Source: a virus | Taxonomy: Duplodnaviria; Heunggongvirae; Uroviricota; Caudoviricetes | Strand: one strand, 5' to 3' | Length of the DNA: 18,298 nt | IMG/VR virus record: IMGVR_UViG_2529292905_000017 | Location: 1 to 18,298 of that record | Part shown: in pieces, positions 15,001 through 18,298 of the stretch | Numbering within the stretch: position 1 is the stretch's first letter | Layout of the letters: the number at the start of each line of letters is the position of its first letter | Program-made: the position numbers

Positions 15001-18000
15001 GGATAATCGCGGATTCAGGTGCTGGTACTGAATTCACCGGGAGACACCCGGCACCATGCAATGGCACATAGCGCCACTCTCCAGCCCCTCTCCGGAGGGG
15101 CTGTTTATATTGATTTTGTCAGATGTGAGTAAACTCCTTATGGACTTTGTTGTTTTAGCCCATAAGGACATATTTGCAGAGTGCAACGGTTATTAAAGCA
15201 TTCATTCAATACGTTATCTGTATTTGTAGGGCATTCCTGGCTGTTTTTGATTAAATTCCAGAATGTTTTATTGAATGGTACTACGTTGTAAATGGTTACA
15301 GGTAGCACTTTGTTATTGAGCATGATACCTGTGTGAGTCAGTGTAAATATACTTTCAGGAGGTAAGAAAGCATCCGATTGATACCAGATTATTAATTTTA
15401 TTTTACTCCATATGACTGAAAAAGATATTCCGCATGATGGCTGGATAACTGTATCAATCACAATCCACTTCATTTAGTTTCCTTGTTTATGCCTTGCTGG
15501 TGATGTTCTGAAAAGTATACATGATATTTTTGATTGTAAACCATAGAGCAGAATTATTTTTCTGATGTTGTTTATTGTTTATTTAAATGCAGGGTGGTTT
15601 ATATCTCGTCTTGTAGTTTATCCATGCATATCTGCTTGATGATGAGGTTTTTATTTAAGGTATGGTTTTGTGTTTTTTCTGTATTACATGTCAGGTATTT
15701 TAAAGAATCATTTTTCAGATGGTGGAAAGAACCATGGCATTTAAACACTATGATGTTGTCAGGGCGGCGTCGCCGTCAGATCTTGCGGAAAAGCTGACAC
15801 ATAAACTGAAAGAGGGCTGGCAGCCGTTTGGTAGTCCGGTGGCCATAACCCCTTATACCCTGATGCAGGCGATTGCAGCAGAAGGTGATGTGGTCGTCAG
15901 TGGTGCAACTGAGCCGGAGTGGTACTACGTCATCGTACTGGCCGGGCAGTCCAATGCCATGGCTTACGGTGAAGGGCTTCCGCTTCCGGATTCATACGAT
16001 GCGCCCCATCCGCGCATTAAGCAACTGGCCCGTCGTAACACAGTGACTCCCGGTGGTGAAGTATGCGTATTTAACGACATCATTCCTGCTGACCATTGTC
16101 TGCATGATGTTCAGGATATGAGTACGATTAACCATCCCCGGGCTGACCTGAGCAAAGGGCAGTACGGCTGTGTCGGACAGGGCTTACATATTGCCAAAAA
16201 ACTGCTTCCGTATATCCCTAATAATGCGGGGATCCTGCTGGTACCATGCTGTCGTGGTGGTTCGGCATTCACCCAGGGCACGGAGGGGACATTCAGCGAG
16301 TCCACGGGGGCCAGTCAGGATTCGGCTCGCTGGGGAGTGGGTAAGCCGTTATATCAGGATCTGCTTTTCCGCACGAAGGCAGCATTGCAGAAAAACCCGA
16401 AAAACGTTTTGCTGGCGATATGCTGGATGCAGGGGGAATTCGATATGACGAATGCCAGTTACGCCCAGCAGCCAGCAGCATTTCTTGCAATGGTACAGCA
16501 GTTCCGTGCTGACCTTGCCGGGCTGGCGGCGCAGTGTCACGGTGGAAGTCCGGCATCAGTCCCCTGGATTTGTGGCGACACGACATACGCGTGGAAACAA
16601 GAACACGGTACGCAATATGAAGTGGTATATGGTGCATATAAAGGTAAAGAATCCCAGCAGATTTATTTTGTTCCCTTTATGACCGATGGTAGCGGAGTTA
16701 ATACACCGACAAACAACCCGTCAGAAGATCCTGATATTGTCGGGTCTGGTTATTACGGTTCGGCATCCCGAACGAACAAAAACTGGGTATCATCAAATCG
16801 CCCGACGCATTTCAGCTCATGGGCGCGTCGTGGCATTATTCCCGATCGTATGGCAACCGCTATTCTGAACGCAGCCGGGCGCACCTCAGCCTTCATCAGT
16901 GGTAAGGCACCGGAAATCAAACCCTCGCCCGGCGGCGACACGCCATCGGGTCCGTCTGCAGATACGTCCGTTCGCACAATCTCCCTGCTGCCGACAGCCG
17001 GAGAGGCTGCTGCGCAGGGCTGGACCATTAAGGACGGCGGAATTCAGTTGTCGGGTGGTGTATTTAAGATCGCCAAGCAGAGCAATAAAACCTGGTCCCT
17101 GACGCGCCCGGTGGATGACGCAGTCTCCCTGCTGACACGGGGTGGCAGACTGAGCTGTAAGTTTCGACTGTCAGGCGCACTGACCAACAATCAGTTCGGT
17201 CTGGGAATTTATCTGTATACCGATGTAGCGTTACCTGACGTCGTGGCGATGACGGGTACCGGTAACCCGTTCCTGATGTCGTTCTTCACCCAGACCACAG
17301 ACGGCAAACTGAATCTGATGCATCACAAGAAAGCAGGAAACACAAAGTTGGGCGAGTTCGGGAATTACAGTAACGACTGGCAGACGCTGGAGCTGGTGTT
17401 CACCGCCGGCAGTGCCACGGTTACTCCGAAACTGAATGGAGTGGCTGGCCCGGCATTCCAGGTCATAAAAGACAGTCTGACACTGGGGCTGAATGCGCTG
17501 ACGCTGACGGATATTACCAAAAATGCAGCGTATGGCGTTGAGATAGAAAGTCTGGTGCTGGAGATAAATGCACCGGCATCATCATAAAAAGTGAGCCAGT
17601 CAAATGGAAGGTATCGTTAAACTCACCGGTAGTGTCAGTGGGTCGTCTGAGATGCCTGCATGAGTTATCAGAGCCATCAGTACTTAACTGGTGGCTTTTT
17701 TTATTGTTGTCAGCTTCCGGATAACGGGAGACGGGGTATGTACCAGATGGAAAAAATCACAACAGGTGTGTCATACACCACGTCAGCGGTGGGAACGGGC
17801 TACTGGTTCCTGCAGTTGCTGGACAGGGTTTCCCCGTCTCAGTGGGCGGCAATAGGCGTGCTGGGAAGTCTGCTGTTTGGGCTGCTGACATATCTGACTA
17901 ACCTGTATTTCAAAATCAGAGAGGACCGGCGTAAGGCCGCCCGGGGAGAGTGAATAATGAACCATGAAGAAATGAATCAGCGCTTCAGTCGCCTGGAAAA

Positions 18001-18298
18001 TGAAATTGCTGAACTGAATAAAAAACTGTCGACGCTGATGCCTTCTGAAGATGAAAAAAAACGCCGCGATGAGCAGTTTGCTGCGTTTGACGATTATTGT
18101 CGGAAAGTGATGAGCAAAAATCTCGCAGAGTGTTTCAGTATTCATAATGATAATTTCAGTGAGCTGGAATGGGAGTGTAACCGGCCATCCTTTGTTGTAT
18201 CCGGTGATGCCGGGAAAATAACCATCTCAGAAAATGGGAAAGTAACACCTCCATCGCACCAGCACAGTGAGGAGCTCATTGAATTTGCCATTGATTAC

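Follow-up and report, generated by a model that had tools for sequence, protein, structure and literature searches.

The open reading frame (ORF) directly behind the holin gene at the end of the 18,298-nt viral stretch analyzed here (the window) is a real gene, and its product is a standalone member, lacking DUF1327, of a mosaic protein family, PHROG 1085. Genes of this family that occupy the slot behind the holin lie between the pinholin gene S and an RrrQ-type SAR endolysin gene in lambdoid or Stx-type prophages of Escherichia coli and Shigella. The lysis cassette itself is complete, with the endolysin one gene further on and not absent. The ORF is probably a moron-like passenger of the late transcript, one that is optional, is shuffled horizontally, and uses the coupling signal of the holin, and it appears not to be required for lysis.

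The ORF and the surrounding lysis cassette

The following features were assigned at the end of the window:

15719..17587, + strand: NanS-p-like SASA carbohydrate esterase (DUF1737 + SASA + DUF6645; Pfam and RefSeq annotation)
17670..17698, + strand: terminator-like G+C hairpin with a T run after it, esterase-holin intergenic region (pattern match only)
17738..17953, + strand: class II holin of the phage 21 type (pinholin family), 71 aa (PF04971 Phage_holin_2_1, E 9e-33)
17943..17950, + strand: Shine-Dalgarno-like GGGGAGAG, within the last holin codons and 6 nt before the ATG of the next gene
17957..18298, + strand: 5′ part of the accessory gene, the first 342 nt, 114 of 185 codons; the frame is open to the window end

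The ATG of the accessory ORF (17957-17959, + strand) lies 3 nt past the holin stop (TGA, 17951-17953), and GGGGAGAG at 17943-17950 is a plausible Shine-Dalgarno sequence for it. The first-pass annotation had placed the gene start 3 nt after the holin and its ribosome-binding site inside the holin 3′ end, and both placements agree with the coordinates; the protein start that it quoted likewise matches the translation of the open 114-codon frame, which begins MNHEEMNQRFSRLENEIAELNKKL... from 17957. The holin (RefSeq WP_000284510.1, ‘class II holin family protein’) carries the dual-start motif M1-Y-Q-M4, with ATGs at 17738 and 17747. Stx-type lambdoid prophages usually have a NanS-p-like esterase gene upstream of the lysis cassette, and the one at 15719..17587 marks a late-operon context. 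The hairpin at 17670-17698 came from a consensus scan of an identical locus (L001, 6071-6099) and is also visible in the window sequence; if the lysis genes share the late transcript, Q-modified RNA polymerase would have to read through it.

Because no complete E. coli genome was collinear with the window at >99% across positions 11000-18298, the downstream part was taken from loci whose DNA is identical to the window across its last 699 nt and was not read in the window itself. In these loci, with 100% identical DNA (the window part of the gene corresponds to L001:6358-6699), the accessory gene runs 216 nt past the window end and is 558 nt long; its product, WP_001015163.1 (‘hypothetical protein’), has 185 aa. 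The next gene, which begins 36 nt after the stop of the accessory ORF in the identical locus, encodes a SAR-type lysozyme of 177 aa (PF00959, E 9.8e-24) with the SAR-like hydrophobic stretch MNTKIKYGLSAAVLALIAAGASAP at its N-terminus; beyond it lie two small hydrophobic ORFs, Rz (PF03245, E 5e-50), and the terminase genes, and the same gene layout was found in three further genomes. Extension past position 18298, proposed in the first-pass annotation and made here through identical loci, thus yielded the complete 185-aa ORF followed by lysozyme and Rz. The earlier remark that an endolysin would be expected at this position was correct in that the ORF is no endolysin, but the implied stand-in was misleading, since a SAR lysozyme and then Rz come after the ORF in the identical loci and the endolysin is therefore shifted by one gene.

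The start signal is common to the other genes found in this slot. In a junction comparison of eight loci, all slot occupants began 3-5 nt past the holin stop, after GGGGAGAG or GAGGAGAG; in census contigs with an empty slot, the same element directly preceded the RrrQ-type endolysin, with gaps of 5-6 nt. The endolysin gene R lacks a Shine-Dalgarno sequence that is separate from this one.

A mosaic family and its conserved C-terminal domain

The 185-aa protein has a mass of 21.3 kDa, a pI of 6.2, and a GRAVY of -0.62. Its N-terminus is highly charged, with no signal or SAR segment, and its maximum Kyte-Doolittle value (19-residue window) was 0.75 vs. 1.7 for the holin; it has no hydrophobic or transmembrane segment and is therefore predicted from hydropathy to be soluble and cytoplasmic. 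No match to a muralytic family (lysozyme, transglycosylase, amidase, or GH108) was obtained for either the 114 visible residues or the full 185-aa protein in Pfam, NCBIfam, or PHROG, which extends an earlier observation on the visible part to the whole protein, and no holin family in Pfam or PHROG matched the 185-aa protein. Judged by its sequence, the protein is neither a muralytic enzyme nor a membrane protein.

Scans of the partial and full proteins against Pfam, NCBIfam, and PADLOC returned only sub-threshold noise (Relaxase_C, HLH, DegQ), and PADLOC-DB 2.0 gave 0 families for the 185-aa protein and none that was credible for its relatives or partner genes. DUF1327 (PF07041) was missing from the window protein in Pfam scans even at E up to 1. 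The HMM search suggested in the first-pass annotation thus drew a blank in these three collections but succeeded in PHROGs, where residues 1-185 matched positions 117-296 of the 296-position profile of PHROG 1085 (‘unknown function’) with E 7.7e-113; the match is partial because longer relatives carry an additional N-terminal DUF1327. As to whether the full-length protein is a known endolysin or a common annotated component of lysis cassettes, the family is both common and annotated, but no function is attached to it and it is not an endolysin: standalone members are entered as ‘hypothetical protein’, and fused members as ‘YdfR family / DUF1327 domain-containing protein’.

Homologs included 185-aa proteins 90-97% identical to the window protein, 213-221-aa forms at about 60-70%, and 287-296-aa YdfR/DUF1327 proteins in which the C-terminal ∼180 aa were 86-88% identical and PF07041 lay N-terminal to the shared region. 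Alignments resolved these proteins into the following modules and combinations:

Module A: DUF1327, about 75 aa
Module B: helical hairpin, about 60 aa
Module C: optional insert, about 30 aa
Module D: conserved C-terminal domain, about 110 aa
E. coli K-12 YdfR: module A alone
PhiR12 phages: A+B
287-296-aa forms: A+B+D
Stx2 phage 86 gp05 (268 aa): A and D, most of the hairpin gone
Window gene: B+D
213-aa forms: B+C+D

Module D is basic and carries the motif GRCMGyLQvAAEIEA…DFdnPPFK..P..W..PG..YLK.RI, with invariant R129, Q135, K167, W173, and Y180; relatives have S or A in place of C130, and no convincing set of catalytic residues is conserved. The N-terminus MNHEEMNQRF... is common to the standalone forms (185, 213, 217, and 221 aa), where the fusions have …KDDIESRIEKLE…, so the window gene did not arise by recent truncation of a fused gene. 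Among 185-aa alleles, dN/dS was 0.13-0.53, and the ORF was intact over alleles 3-10% divergent.

Distant relatives, at 26-37% identity, retain module D, and two of them (P0164 and P0133) also match PHROG 1085. Lambdoid prophages of Salmonella enterica subsp. diarizonae carry them, as do unassigned assemblies. The diarizonae-type order is Q, the family gene, and a reverse-strand DUF1883 gene, with a holin of the HP1 or S21 type downstream of the family gene; another contig has the family gene, then phrog_1853 on the reverse strand, then a multi-TM holin-like ORF followed by a soluble GH108 endolysin and a lipoprotein. A phrog_1853 partner, 42% identical, also follows the family gene on the reverse strand in Stx2 phage 86 and the Stx2a phages 12E129, whereas it is missing at the window-type locus. 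Even at 26-37% identity, family members always have a holin one or two genes away; the holins and endolysins near the distant relatives are varied, however, and the family is therefore not tied to one lysis mechanism, though it is linked to lysis cassettes.

An AlphaFold2 model from a shallow alignment of 24 close homologs (pLDDT 53) was discarded. A second model, for which the relatives of 26-37% identity from an exhaustive profile search were added, reached pLDDT 82 and pTM 0.58. It predicts a helical hairpin in residues 1-60 (helices 3-27 and 31-60), then a disordered linker, and a C-terminal domain composed of a three-stranded beta-meander (80-97) and four helices (101-184) at pLDDT 85-96. 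The conserved C-terminal domain spans residues 76-185, of which the window holds only residues 76-114. No fold relative of this domain was found in the PDB or BFVD. The best hit of a profile search against the PDB, to a PhoU homolog (E 0.014 over 47 residues), was judged to be noise, and three long repeat proteins (SRCR, HEAT/NACHT, and LRR) recovered in a search of representative sequences were dropped after a Pfam scan as repeat-driven matches.

Occupancy of the slot and competing readings

IMG/VR was scanned for the conserved holin 3′ end, and slot content was classed by tblastn of the modules. The sample consisted of the first 120 contigs returned and was not random; 112 were resolvable, as follows:

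Slot empty: 54/112 contigs
DUF1327 only: 50/112 contigs
A+B: 1/112 contigs
A+B+D: 3/112 contigs
B+D: 3/112 contigs, one identical to the window gene and one frameshifted
B+D plus a reverse-strand gene: 1/112 contigs

Occupancy followed the type of endolysin: the slot was filled in 58 of 64 cassettes with an RrrQ-type 177-aa lysozyme and in none of the 48 with an R21-type endolysin, which could reflect mere linkage or a functional relationship. Stx2 phage 86, the PhiR12 phages, and Stx2a phages 12E129 and 14040 also had occupants; in phage JLK-2012, S overlaps R. Among complete E. coli genomes, 810 of 5426 contained similar DNA and 249 held at least 80% of the gene, and decayed copies were seen in Shigella flexneri and in FDAARGOS_403, a genome of the O104:H4 type. 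The gene has a G+C content of 45.2%, about 9 points poorer than the holin (54.6%) and endolysin (54.3%) genes; the corresponding GC3 values are 44.6, 66.7, and 60.1%. A consensus scan, which is weak evidence, found no sigma-70-like + strand promoter upstream of the gene, and no terminator of its own was found, the 3′ end of the ORF containing only a weak hairpin (7 pairs, 3 of them G-C). At least four modules are shuffled at the S-R slot of pinholin cassettes.

The closest arrangement in a well-known genome is that of the K-12 Qin prophage (essQ-ydfR-rrrQ-rzpQ/rzoQ), in which YdfR (P76160; DUF1327, PF07041) has, like the window gene, an S21-type holin on one side and an RrrQ-type lysozyme on the other. 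It begins 4 nt past the holin stop, preceded by the same purine-rich element, and it too is a soluble prophage protein. YdfR, however, consists of DUF1327 and a short helix (103 aa); the window protein lacks DUF1327, and the two have no module in common and are joined only by way of longer proteins in which both parts are present. These long YdfR/DUF1327 proteins (268-296 aa) occupy the same slot with the same coupled start and also belong to PHROG 1085. In one of them, gp05 of Stx2-converting phage 86 (YP_794052.1), the C-terminal domain is 83% identical to the window protein; they differ from it in an N-terminal DUF1327 of about 75-110 aa.

Morons are optional, compositionally distinct inserts between conserved genes, and classical ones come with a promoter and terminator of their own, from which the prophage expresses them; examples of lambdoid morons and late-operon cargo are lambda bor and lom and the stx, nanS-p, and tRNA genes of Stx phages. 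The window gene resembles morons in being optional, distinct in G+C content, and variable among otherwise similar phages, but unlike classical ones it appears to be wired into late translation through the holin 3′ end. The option of an inserted moron, raised in the first-pass annotation, therefore agrees with the presence/absence pattern and the composition, but a promoter and terminator of its own were not found, and so the gene is not a classical self-contained moron. For the passenger reading, we propose that a Q-dependent late transcript carries the accessory gene alongside the lysis genes and that the ribosome-binding signal in the holin 3′ end, which would serve the endolysin when the slot is empty, is re-used by the occupant. 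The protein would be made late, together with the lysis proteins, and might act in the cytoplasm through binding and not catalysis; in the predicted structure, the N-terminal hairpin may mediate oligomerization and the basic alpha/beta domain at the C-terminus may offer a surface to which a partner from host or phage could bind. Our guess, of low confidence, is a cytoplasmic protein of the binding or adaptor kind that acts on such a partner late in infection.

K-12 YdfR (DUF1327) was reported to bind RNase E's catalytic domain and to co-purify with RNA (PMC13232886), and the same paper cites a screen tying ydfR to envelope integrity. This is the sole experimental lead for the wider family. Since longer relatives have the hairpin and the C-terminal domain fused to a DUF1327, our leading guess for the family is a host-directed role linked to RNA metabolism. 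The RNase E and RNA link concerns DUF1327, a domain that the window protein lacks. Some observations run against the passenger reading: a holin is always within one or two genes and the start sits tightly at the holin stop, an arrangement that would also fit a lysis-related role, and all 58 occupied slots precede an RrrQ-like endolysin and none an R21-type endolysin.

The main rival, which we consider rather unlikely, is a cytoplasmic regulator of lysis timing that would bind the charged, cytoplasmic C-terminal tail of the pinholin, or the unreleased SAR endolysin, and delay or sharpen triggering; its level would be kept proportional to that of the holin through the coupled start, and it would be a functional analog of P1 LydB or T4 RIII. 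It is kept in contention by the constant proximity to a holin and by the strict association of occupied slots with a single type of endolysin described above, to which the coupled start with its Shine-Dalgarno sequence within the holin and the soluble character and predicted helical-hairpin N-terminus of the protein can be added. The best functional precedent, should timing be modulated, is P1 LydB, a soluble protein annotated as a LydA antagonist, whose gene comes right after the holin gene lydA and overlaps its stop, and whose role is backed by genetic evidence. The P1 holin is unrelated, however, and LydB has no detectable sequence or profile similarity to the window protein (BLASTP E 1.5; hhalign probability 0.08%), nor does any lysis-annotated PHROG. 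An occupant is absent from about half of the cassettes that have this holin, most occupied slots hold DUF1327 only and thus no module shared with the window protein, and frameshifted copies are frequent; distant relatives lie near other holin classes, near a non-SAR GH108 endolysin, or upstream of the holin.

Distinctly less probable is a cargo gene in a variable hotspot that benefits the lysogen or serves in competition between phages, such as a defense, anti-defense, or superinfection-exclusion factor. Presence/absence polymorphism, low G+C content, and domain shuffling would all suit such cargo, several relatives are paired convergently with phrog_1853 or DUF1883, a small gene on the reverse strand that the prophage could express apart from the late operon, and Stx-type phages carry stx, nanS-p, tRNAs, and iraM between Q and the lysis genes. 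The protein, its relatives, and their partner genes had no PADLOC match, however, and the reverse-strand partner is missing here, with only 36 nt between the ORF and R. With no promoter of its own, a late-operon orientation, and coupling to S, the gene should moreover be silent in a stable lysogen.

It is very improbable that the ORF is a functionless, decaying remnant of a long YdfR-family gene that lost its DUF1327 part, with the frame kept open by chance. The protein does correspond to the C-terminal two-thirds of the 287-296-aa fusions, pseudogenized copies exist, and many of the host prophages are defective, for instance through IS insertions; but the standalone N-terminus is distinct and its start lies at the canonical coupled position, the frame is intact across divergent alleles at the dN/dS values given above, and 249 complete E. 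coli genomes hold most of the gene. A novel endolysin or direct lysis effector replacing the canonical enzyme is effectively refuted, its position directly after the holin being set against the canonical SAR lysozyme and Rz downstream, no match to a muralytic family or fold, no signal, SAR, or transmembrane segment, and no convincing catalytic constellation, with C130 replaced by S or A.

Significance of the occupied slot

This very protein is already in RefSeq and the family is already in PHROGs; the extra gene in the S-R slot of K-12 has been visible for decades, and an occupied slot is both old and common. In the literature searched, there was no mention of YdfR together with a holin, a single mention of DUF1327 was incidental, and a survey of Stx-phage lysis cassettes (PMC8136144) discussed no insert between S and R. 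What is new is the modular anatomy of the family, its conserved C-terminal domain without annotation, and the link between occupancy and endolysin type.

The C-terminal domain of ∼110 aa, which is absent from Pfam, might represent a new class of cytoplasmic late-gene effector encoded alongside lysis cassettes, either tuning the triggering of pinholin and SAR endolysin from the cytoplasmic side or serving as the effector half beside a DUF1327 that docks on RNase E, although we regard this as unlikely. If the RNase E-docking version were true, the phage would rewire host RNA decay late, in step with lysis. If instead the family tunes lysis timing, the kinetics of Shiga toxin release could be affected in the Stx phages that carry it, which would matter in practice. 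The domain recurs beside lysis genes in prophages of Enterobacteriaceae, including Stx phages.

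Slot occupancy and endolysin type

In the IMG/VR census (loci L023–L142; 112 of 120 contigs resolvable), the space between the S21-type holin gene (S) and the endolysin gene (R), hereafter the S-R slot, was occupied in 58 cassettes, all 58 of them upstream of a 177-aa RrrQ-type lysozyme. Occupants were thus present in 58 of the 64 RrrQ-type cassettes and in none of the 48 with a 165-aa R21/JLK-type endolysin, where S overlaps R. This strict tie to endolysin type could reflect either linkage or function.

The slot itself varies. In some variants of the slot gene, the N-terminal hairpin is retained (92% identity over residues 1–62) and either leads into an unrelated 100-aa C-terminus or is disrupted by a frameshift after 24 codons; such variants show a slot that is still rearranging and decaying.

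Variant slot genes
L014:2501-2986, in Stx2a phage Stx2_14040
L027, in an IMG/VR locus

Many relatives also have a small convergent gene after the family gene, assigned to phrog_1853 or DUF1883. The phrog_1853 partner (about 104 aa) of a distant contig is 42% identical to that of E. coli phages, and the DUF1883 partner was found at Salmonella-type loci. The family gene and its partner may form a two-gene module. The window-type locus lacks the partner.

Partners of the family gene in comparison loci, all reverse strand, in two groups (L002, L003 and L009; L007, L011 and L012)
L002:4175-4489
L003:3921-4235
L009:495-812
L007:5651-5941
L011:913-1203
L012:1192-1482

Lysozyme start and downstream genes

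The lysozyme gene and its downstream neighbors were examined in L001, whose DNA is identical to the window end and extends past it.

Features of L001 past the window end
6916-6954, start region of the RrrQ-type lysozyme gene, just past the window end
7576-7608, terminator-like hairpin, before both small hydrophobic ORFs
7642-7824, small hydrophobic ORF, 60 aa, between lysozyme and Rz
7839-7970, small hydrophobic ORF, 43 aa, between lysozyme and Rz

No recognizable Shine-Dalgarno sequence precedes the RrrQ-type SAR lysozyme gene in L001 (6916-6954), L002, L003, L014, L015, L017, L018, L020, or K-12 rrrQ. All copies compared share AAATATC(C/T)-ATG irrespective of upstream content, and their distance from the previous ORF ranges from 0 to about 500 nt; translation may start through coupling or with the help of an A/U-rich enhancer, or may be kept low by design. 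The two hydrophobic ORFs correspond to phrog_1115 and phrog_4906 (both "unknown function"), whereas Stx phages such as phage 86 carry ant at this position.

Holin start

The interval separating the esterase gene from the holin start contains a terminator-like hairpin followed by a T run (AGAGCCATCAGTACTTAACTGGTGGCTTTTTTT; window 17670-17698). The longer ATG version of the holin ORF given by the ORF finder (17660-17953) starts just upstream of this hairpin and reads through it, so 17660 is probably not the true holin start. In the dual-start motif (17738-17749), which encodes M-Y-Q-M, neither of the residues that separate the two Met codons is positively charged; the corresponding motif in Shigella flexneri (L005:3455) is M-K-S-M. 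In S21, an extra positive charge sets antiholin apart from holin, and antiholin function in the window holin may therefore differ.

Cargo and mosaicism

Where Stx phages bear stx, the window (12874-15473) contains no stx gene and carries other cargo instead.

Cargo at the stx position
12874-13923, DNA methylase gene
13973-14048, tRNA-Met(CAT), annotated as tRNA-Ile in similar prophages
14150-14226, tRNA-Arg(TCT)
15138-15473, iraM-like anti-adapter gene, minus strand

No complete E. coli genome gave a collinear match of >99% identity to window 11000-18298; the best matches were at 97.5–97.7% identity and covered 87% in three pieces. The prophage is a recombinant mosaic; a junction lies at some point upstream of 17600. 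The last 699 nt of the window are 100% identical to two genomes, both with a different upstream region.
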